Shown here in pieces: positions 1,730 to 61,364 of a stretch of DNA of 64,000 nucleotides (position 1 is the first letter of the stretch; each line of letters opens with the position of its first letter). The stretch covers positions 699-64,698 of the forward strand of contig CAZNRH010000004.1 of the NCBI GenBank assembly GCA_964575755.1, given 5' to 3'. The position numbers and the translations under genes were made by a program. The notes beneath the pieces were generated by a model. That model was given only the letters and a program-made list of their open reading frames with translations. It had not been told where the DNA came from and searched no databases. Source of the DNA: an uncultured Candidatus Saccharibacteria bacterium. Lineage in GTDB: Bacteria; Patescibacteriota; Minisyncoccia; Phycocordibacterales; JABMNX01.

Positions 1730-1981
1730 TCAATGTCGGTCTCTGGACACGATTCCTTGAGAGGAATCGTCTTTTTTCTTTGAAAAATAGTATATGTAAA
1801 ATATTTCAAGAATACCTACGGTGTTTACTATAAGAAGCGCAATAAACCACCACTTGTCTCTGAGTTGTGCTGACTTCCAAAGGGCAAACCCTTTCCACAT
1901 TGTTGTCCATATAATGATTAATAAGACGGCAAAGAGTAATATAATACCGTGTTCGTTTGCAAATAATTCTAATTTGTTCAT
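1730..1981 (-). CDS. Small 2-TM membrane protein
   Basis: 83-aa ORF with two hydrophobic helices. The start codon sits exactly at the end of the CATCCCGTTAGAG inverted-repeat element. Confidence 0.45.
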   Translation of the reverse strand: MNKLELFANEHGIILLFAVLLIIIWTTMWKGFALWKSAQLRDKWWFIALLIVNTVGILEIFYIYYFSKKKDDSSQGIVSRDRH

Positions 1982-3477: not shown

Positions 3478-3545
3478 GGGCTACCTCGTGTGTTCAGACC
3501 GTGGTCGTTAAGGTCAGCAAGGTTCGTTTCAAGCTTTTTAGAATA
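3478..3545. repeat. Conserved intergenic motif (copy 3): 'GCGGGCTACCTCGTGTG...GTTAAGGTCAGCAAGG'
   Basis: Third copy of the GGGCTACCTCGTG 13-mer. Confidence 0.55.
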
Positions 3546-3615
3546 TCATTTCAACGTACCTTGGGCGCCTTATATTTTTTTAAAAAGTTACAAAAGTGAA
3601 ATTTGGGTTATTAGA

Positions 3616-4410
3616 TTACAATTTCTCAATTCTAACTGCATTAAAGGCTCTTAGGATATCTTCTTTTAAGGTTGGAGTATAATCTTTGGTTTCGTTTCCT
3701 TTATCGTCCGAAAGTGCAGTTCCGTTCCCATATAGAACAACATACGTGTTTTTTCCAAGACTAACAACTGCTATGTATCCTCGTAATGTGATAGTTTCAT
3801 ATTCTGTATGTATATCAGTTGGTATAAGGTTGGTATATTTAATATTAAGAGTTGGATTGGATATGTTTAACAGAATAGCAGCACCTTTCATAAGTCGTCT
3901 ACATAGAGAGTTATTGCTTTTGCTACCAACATCACTATGAGATAGGCCACCAGAGAAATCATAAAGTGTGCCTTGGTATCCGTTGATTTGTATCTGTTTG
4001 GAGGACATAATATTTCCTGTAGGCATTTCTATACATGGATTCGGATCGCCAAAATCATACAACCAATTTTTCTGGTCAGCTACAGCTAGACTGAAATGAT
4101 CTTGGAGCGTAAATTCTCTATTCTCTTTAAATTTTACAAGATACGCTCCTAGCCAAGATTGATATTGTTTTGCATTACGATCGTAACGGGAGGAAACACC
4201 GTTTTTGTCTCTTGCCCCCATAGTCCAATGGTTGACTCCCCAAGTCCTAATGCCATGTTTAGCCCAAGAAGGTCCCATATTGAATCTAACTAACCCATTG
4301 ATCCAAGTGTTAGGGATGTTTGTAAATTCAACACGATATCCAATCTTTCTCTCGAGTAGTCGAATATACCAAGAATACATATAACCAATGAATTGTAGAA
4401 TGTTTTTCAT
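3616..4410 (-). CDS. Hypothetical protein; likely start is the internal ATG (MKNILQF...)
   Basis: The long ORF begins at a TTG. The conserved upstream block 'TTTGCTATaCaAATTT..TGCGTTAGAA' that is shared with the GNAT gene sits immediately before the internal ATG at 4410. Confidence 0.5.
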   Translation of the reverse strand: MKNILQFIGYMYSWYIRLLERKIGYRVEFTNIPNTWINGLVRFNMGPSWAKHGIRTWGVNHWTMGARDKNGVSSRYDRNAKQYQSWLGAYLVKFKENREFTLQDHFSLAVADQKNWLYDFGDPNPCIEMPTGNIMSSKQIQINGYQGTLYDFSGGLSHSDVGSKSNNSLCRRLMKGAAILLNISNPTLNIKYTNLIPTDIHTEYETITLRGYIAVVSLGKNTYVVLYGNGTALSDDKGNETKDYTPTLKEDILRAFNAVRIEKL

Positions 4411-4496
4411 ACTTTCTAACGCAACCACTAAATTTGTATAGCAAATTACCTGCAAGCTACTTCAAGCGCCTGAGACCTCATGCCAGCTCTAAGATG

Positions 4497-4580
4497 CGGA
4501 GGAGGTGGGACTCGAACCCACAAGCGGTTTCCCGCGCCTGTTTTCAAGACAGGTCCGTTACCAATTCCGGGCACTCCTCC
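4497..4580 (-). tRNA. tRNA-Ser (anticodon TGA)
   Basis: Cloverleaf read by hand: acceptor GGAGGAG/CTCCTCC, anticodon loop CTTGAAA, long variable arm, T-arm TGGGTTCGAGTCCCA, discriminator G, no encoded CCA. Confidence 0.85.
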
Positions 4581-4608: not shown

Positions 4609-5085
4609 TCAGCTATTTTTTAAGTGATGTTCCTCTGAGTGACAATTTGGACAAAGTAGTTTTAGGTTTTTCAATTCGTTATTTTCTTTGTTTCTATCTA
4701 TATGATGTACCTCTAATATTTTAGATATATCATAAGTGCACACCTCACATGTTCCACCTCTTTGGTGTAGTAGCCTTATTTTTAAACTCCTTATGTTTTT
4801 GACCTTATCTCTAGGTCTATTGATTTTGTATTTGATGCCTGTTCTGTGTATGTTTGCACATTTCCTACTACATGTTTTTTTATTTGCGCTAGCAAGAATT
4901 AATGTTCTGCAAACGGTACAAGGTTTTTCTTTCCTACAAGAAATTCCATAACAAACTTGTCCACAGAATACTCTACCCCCATTCCTTTCGATCTCAGCAG
5001 GTCTTTTGTATACGGGTTTACTGCAAATTAAGCATTTTGTATTGGGATTTCTTTTATACTCAGTCACTAACCCAGTATACCACAA
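4609..5085 (-). CDS. HNH endonuclease with N-terminal Cys-rich zinc-finger region
   Basis: C-terminal 'VHHIDRNKENNELKNLKLLCPNCH'. Paralog of 13658-14131. Lies next to tRNA-Ser. Confidence 0.8.
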   Translation of the reverse strand: MWYTGLVTEYKRNPNTKCLICSKPVYKRPAEIERNGGRVFCGQVCYGISCRKEKPCTVCRTLILASANKKTCSRKCANIHRTGIKYKINRPRDKVKNIRSLKIRLLHQRGGTCEVCTYDISKILEVHHIDRNKENNELKNLKLLCPNCHSEEHHLKNS

Positions 5086-8797: not shown

Positions 8798-9136
8798 TTG
8801 GATATGGACATAGAAATGACAAAACAAAAAGTAAAGAGTCGGTTATTTTCAATAGCATTTGGAGATAAACATTTACGTTCAAAAATATATTATCATTGGA
8901 ATATCATACTCGCTGTGTTTATTGGACTGAATCTTTTGTTGTTAGTATTCAGTTGGTATCTCTTCTTACAAATAAATGAGGGAGGTATCTTTCTTGTAGA
9001 AAAAGAAAACACTGTTCAAATTGATACTATCGATAGGAATATGCTCAATGAGCTTATAAAATCTTTTGATGAAAAGAAGGTTATCTTTGAAGGGAGGACG
9101 GTATCTGCACCAAGGTTGTCAGACCCTTCTTTATAG
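8798..9136 (+). CDS. Small membrane protein encoded in the pilMNO operon
   Basis: 112 aa with one TM helix; start is adjacent to the pilO stop. Confidence 0.45.
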   Translation: MDMDIEMTKQKVKSRLFSIAFGDKHLRSKIYYHWNIILAVFIGLNLLLLVFSWYLFLQINEGGIFLVEKENTVQIDTIDRNMLNELIKSFDEKKVIFEGRTVSAPRLSDPSL

Positions 9137-11599: not shown

Positions 11600-12334
11600 A
11601 TGAATCAATTAGTAAATCAAAAAGGGATAGAAATTTCTCCAGTAAACATGGAAAGTCGAAGGGACGTAGGAATACGTGCTGGAGACACTGTTCGTGTATG
11701 GCAGAAGATTACTGAAAAGGGTAAAACGCGACTTCAGGCTTTTGAGGGTCTAGTTATTGCGCGTAAACATGGAAATGAAGCTGGAGCCACATTTACCGTA
11801 CGTAGAGTATCAGGAGGAGTTGGTGTTGAAAAGATTTATCCACTTTATTCTCCAATGATAGATAAAATTGAGATTATAAAACGATCAAAAGTTCGACGAT
11901 CAAAGCTATATCATATTCGCGAAAAGGTTGCTCGAGAGATCAAACGTCAAATGCGAAAGATGAAGATGGTAGATATTGCAACAAACTCAGGTATTCAAGA
12001 TGAGGCAAAAGCCGAGGCGGATACTAAAGCTGTTGAAGAGGCGGACGTAAAGAAGCAAGAAGAAGCCAATGTGGAGGAAGAAGCAAAGAAACAGGAAACC
12101 GAAGACTCGGAAACATCTACAAAAGACAAAAAGGAAGAAACAGAAGACGATTCTGGTGTTTCACAAGACTTCATGTCCACAAACCAAGCAAAAATCGCGT
12201 CCGGAGACGTTGCACAAGAAACTGTAAAATTGGATACTTCTGAAGAAACTCCAAGAGAAGATAGTGCTGAAGTAGTGTCTGAAAAAACAGAAGAGGTTCC
12301 AGAAAAAAAGGGCGAGGAGGAAGATAAAAAATAG
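11600..12334 (+). CDS. rplS: Ribosomal protein L19 with a long charged (Glu/Lys-rich) C-terminal extension
   Basis: L19 core 'GDTVRVWQKITEKGKTRLQAFEGLVIARKHG...YPLYSPMIDKIEI', then ~130 aa of 'KAEADTKAVEEADVKKQEE...' low-complexity tail. Confidence 0.85.
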   Translation: MNQLVNQKGIEISPVNMESRRDVGIRAGDTVRVWQKITEKGKTRLQAFEGLVIARKHGNEAGATFTVRRVSGGVGVEKIYPLYSPMIDKIEIIKRSKVRRSKLYHIREKVAREIKRQMRKMKMVDIATNSGIQDEAKAEADTKAVEEADVKKQEEANVEEEAKKQETEDSETSTKDKKEETEDDSGVSQDFMSTNQAKIASGDVAQETVKLDTSEETPREDSAEVVSEKTEEVPEKKGEEEDKK

Positions 12335-13471: not shown

Positions 13472-13548
13472 GGTGGTCGTAGCTCAGCTGGTAGAGCACT
13501 CGGTTGTGGTCCGAGATGTCACGGGTTCAAATCCCGTCGATCACCCCA
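13472..13548 (+). tRNA. tRNA-His (anticodon GTG) with encoded G-1 and encoded 3' CCA
   Basis: Extra 5' G before acceptor GTGGTCG, anticodon loop TTGTGGT, T-arm ACGGGTTCAAATCCCGT, discriminator C followed by CCA. Confidence 0.85.
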
Positions 13549-13657: not shown

Positions 13658-14131
13658 ATGCCTCTTATTAAACGATGTAAAATTTGTGATAAGGTTTTTC
13701 AAACAAAACCTTTTTTTGTAAACAATGGTGGTGGGAAATATTGTTCAGTAGTATGTCATCACAGGGGTTTACGAAAAGGAAAAGTTGTCAAATGCAATTC
13801 TTGTGATAAAGAAGTTTATAAGTCATTAAAAGCGCTTAAAAATTCAAAAAGTAAAAAATACTTTTGTAGCAAATCTTGTCAAACTAAATGGCGTAATTCT
13901 GAATTCATTGGTTCCAAGCATGCTAATTGGCAACACGGAAAATACTCATACAGGAGTGTATTAGCGAGAAATGGAATTACAAAGATTTGTAATTCATGCA
14001 AAATAAAAGATAGGAGAGTTCTTGCTGTTCATCATATAGACAAAAATAAGTTAAATAATGATGTAGAAAACCTCATGTGGCTATGTCATAATTGTCATTT
14101 CTTAGTACATCATTACAAAGATAAAAAATAA
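13658..14131 (+). CDS. HNH endonuclease with N-terminal Cys-rich zinc-finger region (paralog of 4609-5085)
   Basis: 'LAVHHIDKNKLNNDVENLMWLCHNCH'. N-terminal CxxC pairs align with the other HNH gene. Confidence 0.8.
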   Translation: MPLIKRCKICDKVFQTKPFFVNNGGGKYCSVVCHHRGLRKGKVVKCNSCDKEVYKSLKALKNSKSKKYFCSKSCQTKWRNSEFIGSKHANWQHGKYSYRSVLARNGITKICNSCKIKDRRVLAVHHIDKNKLNNDVENLMWLCHNCHFLVHHYKDKK

Positions 14132-14327: not shown

Positions 14328-14861
14328 ATGAAGAGACCTATACTTTTAGGCACATTTGGACATCCAGGTTCTGGTAAGACTTATTTTTCTGAGAGACTAG
14401 CAAAGAAAGAAAAGCTCTTTCATCTATCTGCTGATAGAATTAGATTGAAGATGTTTAAAAATCCAAAGTATACGCTCGAAGAACACAAAATAGTTTTTGC
14501 ATTTATGAATTATCTTGCAGAAGAATTTTTAAAGCATGGCGTTAGTGTTATCTATGATGCAAACTTTAATCTACGAAAACATCGTCAGAAATTAAACAGT
14601 TTGGCTAAAAAAGCTAATGCAGAATATAAATTAGTCTGGGTGAAAACAAGTGACGAAAAAGCGATGTCTCGAATAAAGAAGAGAAGTAAACTTAAAAATA
14701 CAAAAAAGAAAGAGCTGTATCGCCCTATTGATCTAAAGGTTTTTAAATTATTAAAAGAAGAAATGCAGAATCCAACTGTAAAAGAGAAAGTTATTGAAAT
14801 TAATGGTGGTATTTCGTTTTCTAAGCAGTTTGAAAGTTACAAGAAGCAGTTGAGGTTCTAA
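14328..14861 (+). CDS. P-loop NTPase / predicted kinase (AAA_33 / zeta-toxin-like fold)
   Basis: Walker A 'GHPGSGKT' near the N-terminus. Confidence 0.6.
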   Translation: MKRPILLGTFGHPGSGKTYFSERLAKKEKLFHLSADRIRLKMFKNPKYTLEEHKIVFAFMNYLAEEFLKHGVSVIYDANFNLRKHRQKLNSLAKKANAEYKLVWVKTSDEKAMSRIKKRSKLKNTKKKELYRPIDLKVFKLLKEEMQNPTVKEKVIEINGGISFSKQFESYKKQLRF

Positions 14862-36825: not shown

Positions 36826-36882
36826 AGGCACTGCTGTTTGTATCTAATCGCTGTGACTCTTAGACAAACAGGGAGCATTTCT
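36826..36882. repeat. Palindromic repeat, CCCTGTTTG...GATACAAACA family (inverted relative to the 57495 copy)
   Basis: 'gctgtttgtatctaatcgctgtgactcttagacaaacaggga' is the reverse complement of 57495-57540. Confidence 0.6.
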
Positions 36883-45068: not shown

Positions 45069-45395
45069 ATGACCAAAGAATTAGAACAAAAAATAATGAG
45101 GCAGGTAAGGATGGTGTACTACCTTAAAAAGGTATTTAACCCACTTATGTTTAAGGTGTATGCACTGGCTCTTGCTACTGCAGTAATATCTTCACTTGTT
45201 TCTGTTGCAAATGTGTTTAACAATATGCCGTCACTTCTTGAGTTTAATAGTATGTATCGTTTCACTAATAGTGCTATCTCAAATACAGAGCTTTCTGTAC
45301 AACTTGTACTCGGTGTGGTGGTAGTGGTTATGGTGTTGCTTGTGAAGGATACTATTAAGAACTTTTCTTATTCTGGGAAATTGGTTAGGGGTTAG
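45069..45395 (+). CDS. Putative membrane anti-sigma factor
   Basis: Immediately downstream of the ECF sigma gene; two TM helices. Confidence 0.45.
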   Translation: MTKELEQKIMRQVRMVYYLKKVFNPLMFKVYALALATAVISSLVSVANVFNNMPSLLEFNSMYRFTNSAISNTELSVQLVLGVVVVVMVLLVKDTIKNFSYSGKLVRG

Positions 45396-45399
45396 ATTT

Positions 45400-45560
45400 T
45401 TTAGGGTTGCTTTTGAAATGAAGGACGTCCCTCATTTGGGGTTGGGATAGTGGGTTTGGAGGTCGGGACTCCAAATTGCTGGAGTTAATATTGAAATTGA
45501 AAGGCCGTATAATAGGGGATTGCATATGTAGCTACATTTTGATAGAATGTAGCTATTAAT
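45400..45560. repeat. Cluster of MITE-like palindromic repeats (GGACGTC-centred and TTTGGAG..CTCCAAA)
   Basis: 'ttgaaatgaaggacgtccctcatttgg' and 'ggtttggaggtcgggactccaaatt'; relatives at 46213-46460, 58520-58990 and 61297-61364. Confidence 0.6.
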
Positions 45561-45578
45561 AATTAATATATAACTAGT

Positions 45579-45815
45579 ATGACGAAGATAGTTAAAAAGG
45601 TCGAAAAGTTCTTAAAGAATCCAACTTCTACTAAGTATTCAGATTTAGAGAATATATTATTTCATTTTGGATTTGAAAAAATTAATGCGAAAGGGAGTCA
45701 CGTAAAATTTAAACACTCTAAACTCAGACAGGATTTGATAATTCCTATGCATAAGAGAGAGTGTAAAGATTTCTATAAAGAAAAAGCAAAAAAGATAATC
45801 AATAAGATAAAATAA
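45579..45815 (+). CDS. hicA: HicA-family mRNA-interferase toxin
   Basis: 78 aa, 'FGFEKINAKGSHVKFKH...IIPMHKRE'. Confidence 0.7.
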   Translation: MTKIVKKVEKFLKNPTSTKYSDLENILFHFGFEKINAKGSHVKFKHSKLRQDLIIPMHKRECKDFYKEKAKKIINKIK

Positions 45816-45835
45816 AAGATAAGATAGAGAAAATT

Positions 45836-46150
45836 ATGAAAAGGATAACATCAAATATAACAGTAAATAATAAGAAATATAATTACAGTCTTGAAGAAAA
45901 AAAGAAAGGTGTGGTTTTTGTTGAATGTAAAGATGCGAATATAGCGCAGGAATTTCTAGCAGAAGACGTTGCTCGTCTTATTATCGACTTGCCAAATTTA
46001 ATAATTGCCGAGAAAGAACATAATAAAAAACAGTCTGAAGTGATACGCTTTAGGGTTTCTTCTACAGACAAAAATAAAATAGAGAAAAAGGCTATTAAGG
46101 AAGGATATAGTTCTGTTTCTGACTATATGCGTAATGTTGTGTTGAGTTAA
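45836..46150 (+). CDS. hicB: HicB-like antitoxin with C-terminal ribbon-helix-helix domain
   Basis: 104 aa; C-terminal 'EVIRFRVSSTDKNKIEKKAIKEGYSSVSDYMRNVVL' is RHH/CopG-like; 20 nt after hicA. Confidence 0.6.
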   Translation: MKRITSNITVNNKKYNYSLEEKKKGVVFVECKDANIAQEFLAEDVARLIIDLPNLIIAEKEHNKKQSEVIRFRVSSTDKNKIEKKAIKEGYSSVSDYMRNVVLS

Positions 46151-46212
46151 GTATAGGGTTAATTTTTTATGGCAAAATTTGGCGGTTGAGTAGCCGAATT
46201 TAATTCAATGGG

Positions 46213-46460
46213 GTTGTTTTTGAAATGAGGGACGTCGGTCTCCGGTCTGTGGACATGATATTTTGCGAGATATCAGAATCAGACATGATTTCTTGAGAGA
46301 AATTAGACGTCCTTCATTACTAGGAAGATGCTAAAGATTATGGGTGGTAGAAGAGTGCCAGCTGTAACAATATCTGGCAAACGAGCGATTAGTTTGGGTA
46401 TAAAACCACCGATTGCTGATATCTCGCAAGATATCATGTCCACAGACTAGCTAATCGTGG
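46213..46460. repeat. MITE-like palindromic repeat cluster downstream of hicAB
   Basis: ~100-bp element with imperfect termini 'gaaatgagggacgtc ... gacgtccttcattac' enclosing 'ggtctgtggacatgatattttgcgagatatc'; an inverted copy of that core lies at 46418-46450. Confidence 0.65.
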
Positions 46461-46558
46461 GCTTTCGGGTTTTTATAAGCTTACAGAACTGAATGCAGTT
46501 TGGTGGAAAAAATAGGTAACAAAAGAGTCGCCTTTGTGTGGCGACTCTGATTTTGTAG

Positions 46559-46984
46559 TTATTCTTGTGCAAAGATAATTTTTTGATCCAAGGGAAGTTT
46601 TGCTTTCATTCCCGGACCTTGACCCAACCAGTCGTTAGGGAAGGCAAGGTAGAATGGTTCAGGATTTGGATTACGACTATGTAATGGATTCATGGCGACA
46701 TAGTACATTCCGTCGGCTAACCCTCCTTGGAGCCACAGTCGTGGACCGACTTCTGGGTGACAAATTTGATACCCTAGTTCTATTCCACGGACTAAAACTT
46801 CATTGAAGTCTGGGCTCTCGGTAAACCCAAGATTCTCGATGGTTACAATGAGTAGGTTCACGGTTGTGGTAACAGGTGCAACTCGAAAAGCTTGACCTTC
46901 CACCATCGCCTTTGCCCATACCTTAACCTTCACACGTGAAAGTTTTTTAAGAAGGTCTTCCTTAGTGTCACCGCCGATTCTCAC
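46559..46984 (-). CDS. Hypothetical protein (GC-richer island)
   Basis: 141-aa ORF; no recognisable motif. Confidence 0.4.
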   Translation of the reverse strand: MRIGGDTKEDLLKKLSRVKVKVWAKAMVEGQAFRVAPVTTTVNLLIVTIENLGFTESPDFNEVLVRGIELGYQICHPEVGPRLWLQGGLADGMYYVAMNPLHSRNPNPEPFYLAFPNDWLGQGPGMKAKLPLDQKIIFAQE

Positions 46985-47067
46985 ATCGACGGAGATACCA
47001 GGAAGTTGCGTAAATTCTCGAAGAACCTTCCTTATTCTCCGAACAACTTTCCCTTTCTGGCAGTATT

Positions 47068-47280
47068 CTATTCTTCTTCTTGCACAAAGATAGGGAATAG
47101 TCTATCAGGGCGATCTCTTGTGGGCTGTATCACCTCACCGTGTTCATCGAGTGCATAGTTACCGCGTCTTTTCGTCTCCCACGGACATTCGATAAATTCA
47201 TGGATTGTCATGTTATTCAGGAACTTTTCGCCGTTTCGTCGCTCAGTATGGTTTGGTTGGTCTTGCATAATTTCAGACAA
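47068..47280 (-). CDS. Hypothetical small protein (GC-richer island), possibly paired with 46559-46984
   Basis: 70-aa ORF 83 nt upstream of the previous gene, in a different frame. Confidence 0.35.
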   Translation of the reverse strand: MSEIMQDQPNHTERRNGEKFLNNMTIHEFIECPWETKRRGNYALDEHGEVIQPTRDRPDRLFPIFVQEEE

Positions 47281-49373: not shown

Positions 49374-51725
49374 TTACTTAACAACGCCTTTGGGCGCGAT
49401 TTCTTCTGAGGAATCGTCGTCATCTTCATATAATTCTTCCTCTTCAGATGGGAGTTCGTCACCTGTCCCGTTAGAAGTAGACTCGTCAGAGTCGTCAGTT
49501 CTAACGGGATCGGTTTCGTCAACGTCGTCTCCGGACGTGATTTCTTCTGAGAAATCATCGTGGTCGTCAAGAACCTCACGTGGTTTTGAGCCGTTTGCTG
49601 GGCCTATTACTCCTCTGTCTTCAAGCATATCCATTAAGCGTGCTGCACGAGCATAACCTACACGCAACTTTCGTTGTAGGTATGATGTTGAGGCTTTTCC
49701 TGCTTCGATAATTACGCGATATGCGTCGTCGTACAGAGCATCTTCTTGCTCATCTTGATCATCGAGAGTTGCGGAGAACATGGCAGGGTCTCCACTGGTT
49801 TCAGTGAAATCTATTTCACTTGGTAATTCATTTTCGTAACTCTTAATCAAGAACGAAGACACTTTCTTTAATTCTGTTTCTGTTATAAATGGAGATTGTA
49901 TTCGTAGTGGTTTAGACATTTCTCCTGAAAGGAAGAGCATATCTCCTGCACCAAGAAGCTTCTCTGCACCTCCTGTGTCGAGAATGGTTCGTGAGTCTAT
50001 CTGCGAAGATACTTGTAAGGCGATGCGTGTTGGTATGTTGGCTTTAATAAGTCCTGTAATAACCTGCACTGAAGGCCTTTGTGTTGAAAGTATTAAATGA
50101 ATTCCTACTGCACGACTCATTTGTGCAAGACGTACTATGGCACTCTCGAGCTCTCGTGGATATGCTTGCATTATGTCTGCAAGCTCGTCGATAATAAGTA
50201 CAATATACGGCATTGGTTCTGGTACCTCGTCTTCTGGCAAGTCTTTGTCGACTGATGGCGCGACTATGTTCTTGTGATAAGAAGATATGTCTCGCACTGA
50301 GGCTTCTTCTAATATGTCGTAGCGCCTATCCATCTCATTTGCGAGCCATTTGAGGGCTAAGATAGTCTTCTTAGCATTAGTTATTACAGGAGTGAGTAGG
50401 TGTGGAATGTTTTTGTATAGAGTTAATTCGACACGTTTTGGATCAACTAAGATAAGTCGCATGTCTTGTGGTGACTTGCGGTAGATAAGTGACATAACTA
50501 CATTGTGAATCATGACTGATTTACCTGATCCAGTTGCTCCGGCAATAAGAAGGTGAGGCATCTTCGCTAAATCATAGAAATGTGAGTTACCGACAATGTC
50601 GCGGCCGAGACCTATGAGCAGTGACTTATCTGAGTTCTGGTACTCATCATTTGCTAATAGGGAAGCGAGTCCTACCATAGCTTTAGACTTGTTTGGTATT
50701 TCAATGCCAACGAGTGACTTGCCTGGTATTGGTGCTTCTATGCGTACTGGATATGCTGCGAGTGCGAGCTCTAGATTGTTTTGAAGTGTGAGAATTTTAG
50801 AAAGTCTAACTCCTTCGGCTGGTTTGAGTGTGTAGCGAGTTACTGTCGGACCGATAGAAACTTCATCCATCTCTACTTGTATGCCAAAGTTTTGTAGCGT
50901 GCGTTTTATGATGTTGGCATTTGCTTTTACGTCTCCCACGTCTGGCTTTCCTTTATCCTTTTCAAGTAGTGACAGGGGAGGGGGAGTGTACTCTCCAAAC
51001 GATGCATATGTATTTATTTTAGGATCTTTTTTGCCGAAACCGAGTAGACCTTTTAATCCACCAGCGCCTTCTTCTTCGTCTTCAGTTTCTTCTTCGTCGT
51101 ATTCCTCCTCCTCTGCATCTTCATCGCCTCCGGGCGCGATTTCTTGCGAGAAATCGTCATCTTCTTCGTACGCTTCTTCCTCGGCGTCATCCTCGTAGTA
51201 TTTCTCCTCTTCAGTATCTTTTCGTTTGAAGACATTCAAGAATGAAAAACTTGGCAGGAAGTCGAACATAATAACAAGAGACAATATAATAAGCACAACG
51301 AGCATAAGTACAGATGCATATACATCGAGTAATGCAACAATAGGGGACGATACGAAACCTCCTATTATTCCAGCACTTCCTTTAAATGCTATATCTATAA
51401 TTCCTAAACTTGAGAGTATAAATACTCCTGCGCTCACGTTCTTTAGTGTGCCGTATGCATGTTCGTATGAACGAAAGAATGAAATTGCTATGAAAAATAG
51501 AACGATAGGTAATAAGAAGTATCCAACACCAAAGAGAGTGGAGAGACTGTTGAATGTAGCTCGCCCTGCTATACCTGCGATATTAAATGCGGACAGTATA
51601 AAAAAGAGTGTGATAAATAGGAATACGATACCCCAAATACCACGTACAGTTTCTTCTTTCAGGTCTTCAAATATGTTACTAATTGCAAGATCTTTTTTAT
51701 TTCCTTTTTTCTTTTTTTTAGCCAT
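49374..51725 (-). CDS. ftsK: DNA translocase FtsK/SpoIIIE
   Basis: N-terminal TM segments, acidic linker, motor domain 'LIAGATGSGKSVMIHNVVMSL', gamma domain '...STSYLQRKLRVGYARAARLMDMLE', then an extra acidic C-terminal tail. Confidence 0.92.
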   Translation of the reverse strand: MAKKKKKGNKKDLAISNIFEDLKEETVRGIWGIVFLFITLFFILSAFNIAGIAGRATFNSLSTLFGVGYFLLPIVLFFIAISFFRSYEHAYGTLKNVSAGVFILSSLGIIDIAFKGSAGIIGGFVSSPIVALLDVYASVLMLVVLIILSLVIMFDFLPSFSFLNVFKRKDTEEEKYYEDDAEEEAYEEDDDFSQEIAPGGDEDAEEEEYDEEETEDEEEGAGGLKGLLGFGKKDPKINTYASFGEYTPPPLSLLEKDKGKPDVGDVKANANIIKRTLQNFGIQVEMDEVSIGPTVTRYTLKPAEGVRLSKILTLQNNLELALAAYPVRIEAPIPGKSLVGIEIPNKSKAMVGLASLLANDEYQNSDKSLLIGLGRDIVGNSHFYDLAKMPHLLIAGATGSGKSVMIHNVVMSLIYRKSPQDMRLILVDPKRVELTLYKNIPHLLTPVITNAKKTILALKWLANEMDRRYDILEEASVRDISSYHKNIVAPSVDKDLPEDEVPEPMPYIVLIIDELADIMQAYPRELESAIVRLAQMSRAVGIHLILSTQRPSVQVITGLIKANIPTRIALQVSSQIDSRTILDTGGAEKLLGAGDMLFLSGEMSKPLRIQSPFITETELKKVSSFLIKSYENELPSEIDFTETSGDPAMFSATLDDQDEQEDALYDDAYRVIIEAGKASTSYLQRKLRVGYARAARLMDMLEDRGVIGPANGSKPREVLDDHDDFSEEITSGDDVDETDPVRTDDSDESTSNGTGDELPSEEEELYEDDDDSSEEIAPKGVVK

Positions 51726-57439: not shown

Positions 57440-57550
57440 TACAGGCTCCCTGTTTGCCCAAGCTTTGCTTGGATACAAACAGCAGTGCAGAGCCTCCCTG
57501 TTTGTCTAAAAGCCACAACGATTAGATACAAACAACAGAGCAGGAAGGTC
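57440..57550. repeat. Two tandem copies of the CCCTGTTTG...GATACAAACA palindromic repeat
   Basis: 'ccctgtttgcccaagctttgcttggatacaaacagcag' and 'ccctgtttgtctaaaagccacaacgattagatacaaacaacag'; the latter matches 36826-36882 inverted. Confidence 0.6.
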
Positions 57551-58519: not shown

Positions 58520-58990
58520 TAAAATAACAAATTTGGAGACCTGGTCTCCAAATTTGTATAAAAGATTAAATAATATGCAACGAATAGTAAATCATTCATT
58601 TTTCAAATTCTTCGTTGGTTTTATAGCGATGTTACTTCTTAGTTTTGCGATTATAACCATAACTTCACAGATTTCAGAAAAGGAAGTCGACTCCAAAAAC
58701 CAAACAGCCTGCCAAGATTCAGAAGACTGCTAAACAACAAATGGAGGACGTCGGATGTCCTCCATTTGTAGAAAAGTTATTAACAGAATGACGTGGTTTG
58801 AGGTGGTTAGGTTTTTTGGTTGTTGAAGTCAGACTTCAACAAACTTCAACAAAAAATGAGGGACGTCGGAGGTCCAACATTTAAGGAGGGGTATAGTTCT
58901 GTTTCAGACTATATGCGTAAGTTAAAACCCAGAATAATAAATTTGGAGACCTGGTCTCCAAATTTAGACTGCTGGTCTAGTTACTTATGT
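58520..58990. repeat. Composite repeat region: two perfect copies of the palindrome 'AAATTTGGAGACCTGGTCTCCAAATTT', GGACGTC-centred palindromes, and a ~45-bp duplicate of the hicB 3' end
   Basis: Palindrome at 58533-58559 and 58940-58966; 'aaatggaggacgtcggatgtcctccattt' at 58741; 'aaggaggggtatagttctgtttcagactatatgcgtaa' at ~58877-58915 matches 46096-46135. Confidence 0.7.
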
Positions 58991-61289: not shown

Positions 61290-61296
61290 GTTTATA

Positions 61297-61364
61297 AACA
61301 CTTGGGTGTCGGTCTGTGGTCTCCGGACATAATATTTTGCGAAATATCAGACACCCAAGTGTTT
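61297..61364. repeat. 68-bp MITE-like element with perfect 15-bp terminal inverted repeats
   Basis: 'aaacacttgggtgtc-ggtctgtggtctccggacataatattttgcgaaatatca-gacacccaagtgttt'; the core matches the 46246-46276 repeat. Confidence 0.7.

Follow-up and report, generated by a model that had tools for sequence, protein, structure and literature searches.

Whether a small toxin-antitoxin (TA) module is carried by the repeats that surround it, and what kind of antitoxin it encodes, is the question raised by a locus in a 64,000-nucleotide (nt) stretch of contig CAZNRH010000004.1 from an uncultured Candidatus Saccharibacteria bacterium; the whole stretch is referred to here as the window. In a preliminary description of the sequence, two neighboring genes were read as a HicAB pair bracketed by palindromic repeats resembling miniature inverted-repeat transposable elements (MITEs), through which the pair appeared to have been mobilized or recombined. 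The evidence, taken jointly, is probably best explained by a likely functional type II TA operon, formed by a HicA toxin and an antitoxin candidate that is not a HicB, which entered the genome at a variable site, is accompanied by the footprint of a palindromic repeat (R1), and once had a second copy that has decayed. The features are listed in Table 1; L-numbers (L007, L071, etc.) denote comparison loci or contigs from other genomes or assemblies.

Both open reading frames (ORFs), of 78 and 104 amino acids (aa), lie on the plus strand as described, and the gap between them is 20 nt. Identification of the first product as HicA was borne out by the Pfam family PF07927, which it matches over residues 21-63 with 37.9 bits against a cut-off of 27 (E 2e-09). 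The protein contains KGSHVKFKH (motif KGSHxKFKH), and the Gly-Ser-His motif is kept across ~45 homologous loci. The histidine in the Gly-Ser-His context of HicA proteins is the catalytic residue. HicA was found directly 5′ of the partner gene in 48 of 61 loci, Patescibacteria-wide, which is the toxin-first order of HicAB operons, where the toxin gene is directly upstream of the antitoxin gene (PMC7781912).

For the second protein, only the ribbon-helix-helix (RHH) part of the earlier HicB-RHH assignment stood. Residues 65-103 match the NikA-like RHH family PF21983 with 32.7 bits against a cut-off of 27, the match is present in 33 of 33 family members tested, and this region weakly resembles the NikA and NikR structures (profile match to NikA structure 2ba3, E 0.01). 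No HicB family was matched at E<=1 by the partner and 32 relatives (33 members), or at E<=0.01 by ten distant homologs. The AlphaFold model (pLDDT 89 for the whole protein, 93.6 for the N-domain, residues 1-66) consists of four strands and a long helix followed by the RHH. When the whole model was compared with the PDB using Foldseek, nothing significant was returned, the best HicB entry being 6g1c_V (HicB N-domain) with E 0.74; the N-domain model alone had no HicB among its top 50 matches (best E 0.9). HicB is defined by an N-terminal partial RNase H-like fold together with a DNA-binding domain (PMC7781912). Because the NikA-like RHH supplies the C-terminal DNA-binding domain (RHH or helix-turn-helix) and a HicB-type N-domain fold was not found, the partner has only half of that definition. 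On sequence and model we classify it as a HicA-associated RHH antitoxin candidate, not a HicB. It also departs from the usual layout of RHH proteins of the CopG/NikA/NikR type that serve as antitoxins: most RHH antitoxins have an N-terminal RHH followed by a disordered toxin-binding tail, whereas the RHH of the window protein is at the C-terminus of a two-domain protein.

DNA homology between loci is limited to the region corresponding to window positions 45520-46150, which begins with the promoter. Nearly all homologous loci possess a -35 element and then two GTAGCTAC palindromes around a TATAAT-like -10, at a constant distance 5′ of hicA. The palindromic candidate operator thus overlaps the operon promoter, as in type II TA autoregulation, and the anatomy matches that of an autoregulated type II TA operon, with binding to the boxes being a prediction. 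The promoter stretch had been counted as part of a left repeat cluster at 45400-45560. Within that interval the R1 copy and a weak hairpin are real repeats, whereas positions 45520-45556 are the promoter and operator of the module itself.

More than 300 partner homologs were found at 59-82% identity, nearly all of ~104 aa, and a profile of the N-domain recovered 133 cluster representatives among 1.84 billion, almost all of the same length as the partner. Species-representative genomes in GTDB contain 57 loci of the family, nearly all from Patescibacteria (Paceibacteria, Saccharibacteria, Peregrinibacteria/Peribacteria, and Gracilibacteria); one is labeled Gammaproteobacteria, one Pseudobdellovibrionaceae, and a few have no phylum name. 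Neighboring genes are unrelated from locus to locus. Carriage by phages was considered and rejected, as IMG/VR held neither a relative of the antitoxin nor the core repeat described below. A small GIY-YIG nuclease gene is found 5′ of the homologous module in L077 (2423-2677). Compared with the HicAB systems of Escherichia coli, Yersinia pestis, and Burkholderia pseudomallei, the window module shares the toxin-first order, a HicA recognizable by hidden Markov model with Gly-Ser-His, a C-terminal DNA-binding domain in the partner, and a palindromic operator over the promoter. It differs in the N-domain of the partner, whose four strands and long helix match no HicB family or structure, in the near confinement of the family to Patescibacteria, and in the length of HicA, 78 aa as against 58 aa in E. 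coli (PMC7781912).

The module might not encode a TA system at all, the 104-aa protein being a NikA/MobA-type relaxosome accessory or a plain transcription factor and the HicA-like protein a harmless RNA-binding protein. The best family matches of the partner are indeed NikA-like, MobA, MbpA, and TraJ, and neither PADLOC nor NCBIfam gave a TA or defense assignment for either protein; identity as a defense system was itself rejected on the PADLOC result. However, the NCBIfam matches of the partner cover only the 40-residue RHH, with ~20 bits against cut-offs of 80-134, and none of the loci has a relaxase or conjugation gene close by. Strict pairing, toxin-first order, a conserved self-operator, and patchy distribution are hallmarks of type II TA systems, and we consider a non-TA role very improbable.

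The position of the module was resolved by relatives of the sigma factor gene upstream of it. L071, whose sigma factor is 88% identical, has the order sigma, 108-aa gene, 80-aa gene, 116-aa gene, recA. In L073 and L074 (sigma 83% identical) there is a short spacer or a small ORF between the 108-aa gene and recA. The module is absent from all three, in agreement with its earlier description as accessory. Alignment of L071 with the window runs up to 45388 and resumes at 47055; given this break and the relatives without the module, the 1.67 kb between them (45389-47054) are lineage-specific. The segment contains R1, the module, the core repeats, and a 5′-truncated gene, and on this sequence comparison we take the module to have been inserted, in this lineage, at a variable site that separates the sigma/108-aa pair from recA. 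The truncated gene, a 141-aa ORF with no upstream start codon, has a single homolog (205 aa, from another genome) that is 74% identical, with homology beginning at residue 35 and residues 1-34 missing; it is a further fragment in the hot spot that it shares with the module. Definition of the empty site through this neighbor was dropped, its sole homolog being on a non-syntenic contig.

The repeats around the module had been treated as one set. They are present, but they are three unrelated things, R1, the core hairpin, and the operator of the module, and the first two are separate families with different distributions. The two R1 direct-repeat copies that flank the module are 92% identical (nhmmer E 3.7e-9 and 5.2e-7). 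The GGACGTC palindromes are real: AAATGAGGGACGTC with at most two mismatches occurs seven times in the window against 0.37 expected, a count reached by 0 of 100 shuffles, at 45416, 45424 (minus strand), 46223, 46306 (minus strand), 58739, 58854, and an unrelated site at 8974. R1 is limited in the 64-kb window to two HicAB-related loci. Elsewhere, none was found by nhmmer in L007-L071 and L073 (~0.4 Mb) or by blastn of the flanks in L007-L078. GGACGTC-centered terminator hairpins occur beside recA in the closest relative. Homology of R1 with the 52-nt repeat that flanks the L037 module, suggested by visual inspection, was rejected, there being no nhmmer cross-match and the likeness being T-rich low complexity.

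In the right R1 copy, two core hairpins in tandem form a 69-nt insert (46237-46305) that separates the halves of the palindrome. As previously reported, the 30-nt core GTCTGTGGACATGATATTTTGCGAGATATC is present in both orientations, at 46245 (plus) and 46418 (minus), with 0 expected; the resulting inverted repeat has 32-nt arms (46245-46276 and 46416-46447) that are 97% complementary and 139 nt apart. The 203 nt from 46245 to 46447 are non-coding and end in 32-nt inverted repeats, as in a MITE. They depart from a MITE in three respects: the flanks, GGTCTCCG and TAGCTAAT, have nothing in common that would indicate a target-site duplication; blastn found no other copy of the inner 139 nt in the window or in L007-L078; and the terminal repeats are copies of an independent 38-nt hairpin also found singly. 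With the core pair wholly to the right of the module, an interior unique among the sequences compared, and no visible target duplication, this appears not to be a MITE carrying the module.

A broader version of the idea is that the module is cargo of a composite non-autonomous element, ended by R1, the core pair, or both, and mobilized in trans by a transposase from another locus, for example, an IS200/IS605-type or REP-associated Y1 enzyme acting on hairpins (REP, repetitive extragenic palindromic). R1 flanks the module in direct orientation and is also beside the relic described below, the core forms an inverted pair, and its location in the center of three different outer palindromes suggests hairpin-targeted insertion. 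Two independent short-read Logan assemblies of the same organism, L002 (SRR6439372) and L003 (SRR6439370), both end at 46267 in the left core arm, as expected of a multi-copy repeat, which points to a genomic copy number of the core high enough to interrupt assembly graphs. In L078, the homologous module is followed (3488-3910) by a gene fragment that corresponds to the C-terminal half of IS200-type Y1 transposases (Y1_Tnp, 30.4 bits against a cut-off of 23). Against this, R1 was not found beyond the two HicAB loci in the sequences scanned, the core pair cannot bracket a module that it adjoins on one side only, and the core has no specific link to the module, being found inside ftsK and rplS as well. 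The interior, unique among the sequences compared, and the missing target duplication also count against a composite element, no RAYT/Y1 transposase was found among 27 window ORFs scanned, a subset of all ORFs, and 42 of 48 homologous modules have no flanking repeat. Mobilization by flanking MITE-like repeats was therefore not upheld, and we regard the composite element as distinctly unlikely.

Flanking direct repeats are more common at modules of this family than at control positions. Repeats of at least 30 bits were found at 5 of 46 modules compared with 2 of 159 shifted controls (Fisher p 0.007). They had seemed a universal feature of the family when the first four loci all had them, a view abandoned when the overall figure proved to be only 5-6 of 46. 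Their sequences differ by genome, as do their lengths: 26 nt in the window, 32 nt in L007, 28 nt in L008, 28-48 nt in L009, and 52-55 nt in L037. There is thus an excess of local duplications at module edges, compatible with recombination or insertion at terminator hairpins.

These repeats could reflect a form of cassette mobility that duplicates its target, in which terminator hairpins, or positions next to them, receive TA cassettes (HicAB among others) through either staggered cutting or a single crossover of a circular intermediate, with 26-55 bp local direct repeats left behind that later decay. The excess over controls and the genome-specific sequences agree with such a process. So do the L007 repeat, composed of the stop codon and left terminator arm of a TPR gene, and the 33-nt TPR-terminator repeat that brackets a small ORF and the relic in the window. 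In L037, the repeat occurs three times, enclosing first HicAB and then a gene judged on visual inspection to be a DinJ-like antitoxin, an arrangement like a small cassette array of TA-type genes. Yet most loci have no such repeats, including those of the close relatives L011-L013, L077, and L078, and no recombinase travels with the module. The L008 repeat belongs to a 221-nt duplication that includes mazE, pointing to ordinary segmental duplication, and in some repeats (L037) the mismatches are concentrated toward one end, as would be seen at a recombination junction. We know of no mechanism that yields target duplications of such variable length, and cassette mobility of this kind is in our judgment unlikely.

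The preliminary description also noted that the end of the antitoxin gene recurs 12.7 kb away, and this proved to be a true remnant of a second copy. The relic is identical at 37 of 40 positions (58881-58920) to 46095-46134 of the intact gene, with the alignment extending to 58923, and at 32 of 40 to the L007 gene. All three internal differences from the intact gene are synonymous (naive probability 0.007, 19% of single substitutions there being synonymous), which indicates a period of evolution as two distinct coding genes prior to the destruction of one of them. The relic abuts an R1 copy (58854-58882), and comparison with the intact locus shows a loss of ~657 nt, from the end of the R1 hairpin to antitoxin codon ~87. 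L007 and the window have a gene order in common, consisting of a 1180-aa gene, a TPR gene, a small membrane ORF, and rplJ, and L007 possesses an intact module directly 3′ of the TPR gene. In the window the small membrane ORF (58575-58733) is just before an R1-like palindrome. Judged from these sequences, the relic is a decayed second copy of the module.

We infer that HicA, as a small ribosome-independent RNase, cleaves RNA, and that the 104-aa partner restrains it through the family-specific N-domain, which would bind and block the toxin, while the RHH would bind the two boxes around the -10 so that the operon represses itself. The compact operon family would have spread horizontally through Patescibacteria. 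R1, a duplicated GGACGTC palindrome plus 12 nt of shared upstream sequence, would have been left by recombination or insertion at a hairpin of the terminator type and would not be a transposon end. As for the order and mechanism of the rearrangements, the 38-nt hairpin element would have entered the center of the right R1 palindrome later, and again, inverted, 135 nt further on. The second module copy, beside the TPR gene, would have lost the ~657 nt and been reduced to 43 nt.

Several observations weigh against this account. The left R1 hairpin is weak on its own (-3.5 kcal/mol, z -0.7), and the L071 comparison puts both R1 copies inside the lineage-specific segment, so R1 may have come along with the module and not be a duplicated target. 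The order at the second site differs, with the small ORF preceding the relic in the window and the module preceding the small ORF in L007, and the two TPR-side insertions may be independent; L007 is also distant, its TPR protein being only 30% identical. The left flank of the module resembles the sequence 5′ of the relic only marginally, a score as high being obtained in 1 of 500 shuffles, and this likeness is not relied on. Finally, the N-domain of the partner has no recognizable relative, its HicA-binding role being predicted solely from gene pairing.

Table 1. Features of the HicA module locus, its relic, and the associated repeats in the window and in comparison loci
Feature	Sequence	Position	Strand	Remarks
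hicA	window	45579-45815	+	78 aa; Pfam HicA_toxin match, homologs aligned
Antitoxin candidate gene	window	45836-46150	+	104 aa; N-domain residues 1-64, C-terminal RHH 65-103
Module promoter and candidate operator	window	45520-45556	+	conserved upstream of hicA in homologous loci
-35 TTGCAT	window	45520-45525	+	
Predicted operator box 1	window	45528-45535	+	GTAGCTAC
-10 TAGAAT	window	45543-45548	+	
Predicted operator box 2	window	45549-45556	+	GTAGCTAT
Small terminator-like hairpin	window	46183-46196	+	3′ of antitoxin candidate gene
R1, left copy	window	45404-45437	+	26-nt direct repeat GGGTTGCTTTTGAAATGAAGGACGTC 45404-45429, running into uninterrupted palindrome AAATGAAGGACGTCCCTCATTT 45416-45437
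Weak hairpin TTTGGAG..CTCCAAA	window	45455-45475	+	z -2.7; resembles AAATTTGGAGACCTGGTCTCCAAATTT hairpins at 58529 and 58939 (read from sequence)
R1, right copy	window	46211-46319	+	direct repeat 46211-46236; palindrome split
R1, right palindrome halves	window	46223-46236, 46306-46319	+	AAATGAGGGACGTC and GACGTCCTTCATTA; GACGTC on both sides of insert
Core copy a	window	46244-46281	+	52.2 bits
Core copy b, degenerate	window	46282-46311	+	29.2 bits
Core copy c, inverted relative to a	window	46411-46448	-	inside own imperfect outer palindrome CCACCGATTG/CTAATCGTGG; long hairpin z -7.2
5′-truncated gene (141-aa ORF)	window	46559-47083	-	own terminator 46524-46548
33-nt direct repeat, left copy	window	58523-58555	+	terminator-type hairpin after TPR gene, z -7.6
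R1-like palindrome	window	58737-58769	+	AAATGGAGGACGTCGGATGTCCTCCATTT; directly 3′ of small membrane ORF; z -6.3
R1 copy beside relic	window	58854-58882	+	AAATGAGGGACGTC and degenerate right arm
3′ relic of second antitoxin gene	window	58881-58923	+	43 nt; reads FKEGYSSVSDYMRK
33-nt direct repeat, right copy	window	58933-58965	+	97% identical to left copy
Core copy 61318-61355 in outer palindrome	window	61296-61364	+	in center of 15-bp outer palindrome AAACACTTGGGTGTC/GACACCCAAGTGTTT; z -6.1
Coding core copies	window	1738-1775(+), 12148-12185(-), 49385-49422, 49526-49563, 51125-51162(+)		
Coding core copies in ftsK	L071	9597-9634		
Coding core copies in ftsK	L073	9926-9963, 11594-11631		
Flanking repeat	L007	5608-5639, 6371-6402		TPR stop codon and left arm of TPR terminator
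mazE duplication	L008	5356-5576, 7676-7896		221 nt, whole mazE gene
28-nt mazE 3′ fragment	L008	6328-6355		after module; flanking repeat belongs to 221-nt duplication
Flanking repeat	L009	5583-5630, 6318-6365		
Flanking repeats, three copies	L037	2634-2688, 3354-3408, 3920-3974		

The core hairpin extends well beyond the module. The window has nine copies, and the three intergenic loci (46244-46311, 46411-46448, and 61318-61355) are each centered in a different outer palindrome. Five of the nine are inside coding sequence: three in ftsK, one in the tail of rplS, and one in the tail of an 83-aa membrane ORF. Beyond the window there are three copies in the ftsK genes of relatives and two in contigs of a sister sample, VAPL01, the latter being all that a metagenome scan added. 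In the 14 copies taken together, 96.4% of stem cells are paired and four of eight pairs are changed on both sides, giving a covariation score that was reached by 0 of 500 shuffles; slid controls were 38-55% paired.

Every coding copy is antisense to its gene, and a single frame is used throughout, with the translation D-[FISV]-S-[QE]-x-I-[AMT]-[SP]-G. Those of ftsK are in acidic linkers and the C-terminal tail, and that of rplS is in a C-terminal extension. Codon changes in one arm are matched in the other (TTC/GAA, ATT/AAT, TCC/GGA), which preserves the palindrome. At the orthologous FtsK C-terminal site, three relatives have three variants (DFSEEI, DSSQRI, and DVSQNI), all palindromic or nearly so, in adjoining protein that is 75-96% identical. 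The core is either a translated mobile palindrome of the Rickettsia type or a peptide repeat in which the DNA is kept palindromic. Rickettsia palindromic elements (RPE) occupy intergenic sites as well as in-frame positions within genes, where they are translated, and are ~100-150 nt long. Like them, the core is palindromic and is both intergenic and in frame within genes; unlike them, it is only 38 nt, and its coding copies have a single frame and orientation and are in acidic linkers or tails, so common descent as a peptide repeat is possible. The REP/REPIN sequences of proteobacteria are similar to the core in their short length, conserved 5′ part (GGTCTCCGGAC in the core), compensatory stem variation, and, in one instance, an inverted doublet. 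The core differs from them in its coding copies, its low copy number, the lack of a RAYT among the ORFs scanned, and its restriction, to date, to this one lineage, in which it is known from the window, two sister-sample contigs, and ftsK of two relatives. Comparison by eye with dif, parS, and CRISPR repeats gave no fit.

The repeats around the module could be joined in a single hairpin-based genome-plasticity system of this Patescibacteria lineage, in which the 38-nt element would target the centers of palindromic terminators and persist in frame in the essential genes ftsK and rplS, with arm codons covarying (F/E, I/N, S/G) to keep the DNA palindrome, while TA cassettes would be moved by hairpin recombination that leaves 26-55 bp duplications and involves no cassette-encoded recombinase. 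We think this joint reading unlikely.

A dispersed 48-nt repeat was also observed in the window, with 90% complementary intergenic copies 20 kb apart at 36828-36875 and 57494-57541 (also 57469-57488). It holds its own ~12-bp hairpin, CTGTTTGTCTAA/TTAGACAAACAG, and has no Rfam match. Rfam at gathering thresholds detected tRNAs only in the window, and sub-threshold matches at 57.3-57.7 kb are generic terminators. Two HNH endonuclease ORFs of 157-158 aa are each beside a tRNA gene: 4609-5085 (minus strand) adjoins tRNA-Ser (4496-4580), and 13658-14131 (plus strand) adjoins tRNA-His (13473-13548). A Zeta-toxin/AAA_33 kinase-like ORF is present at 14328-14861.

The overall understanding of TA systems is unchanged by these findings. 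If the core is mobile, its occurrence both in intergenic terminators and within the ftsK and rplS reading frames would make it a rare instance, outside Rickettsia, of a palindromic repeat that is translated. If our account of the locus holds, it provides a dated series of TA gain and loss, with an intact copy where relatives are empty and a 43-nt remnant at a site that is occupied elsewhere. If the partner truly neutralizes HicA through a non-HicB domain, then HicA toxins would have recruited a second, structurally distinct antitoxin scaffold, and this scaffold would have reached much of the Candidate Phyla Radiation, a group believed to retain few accessory genes in its small genomes.

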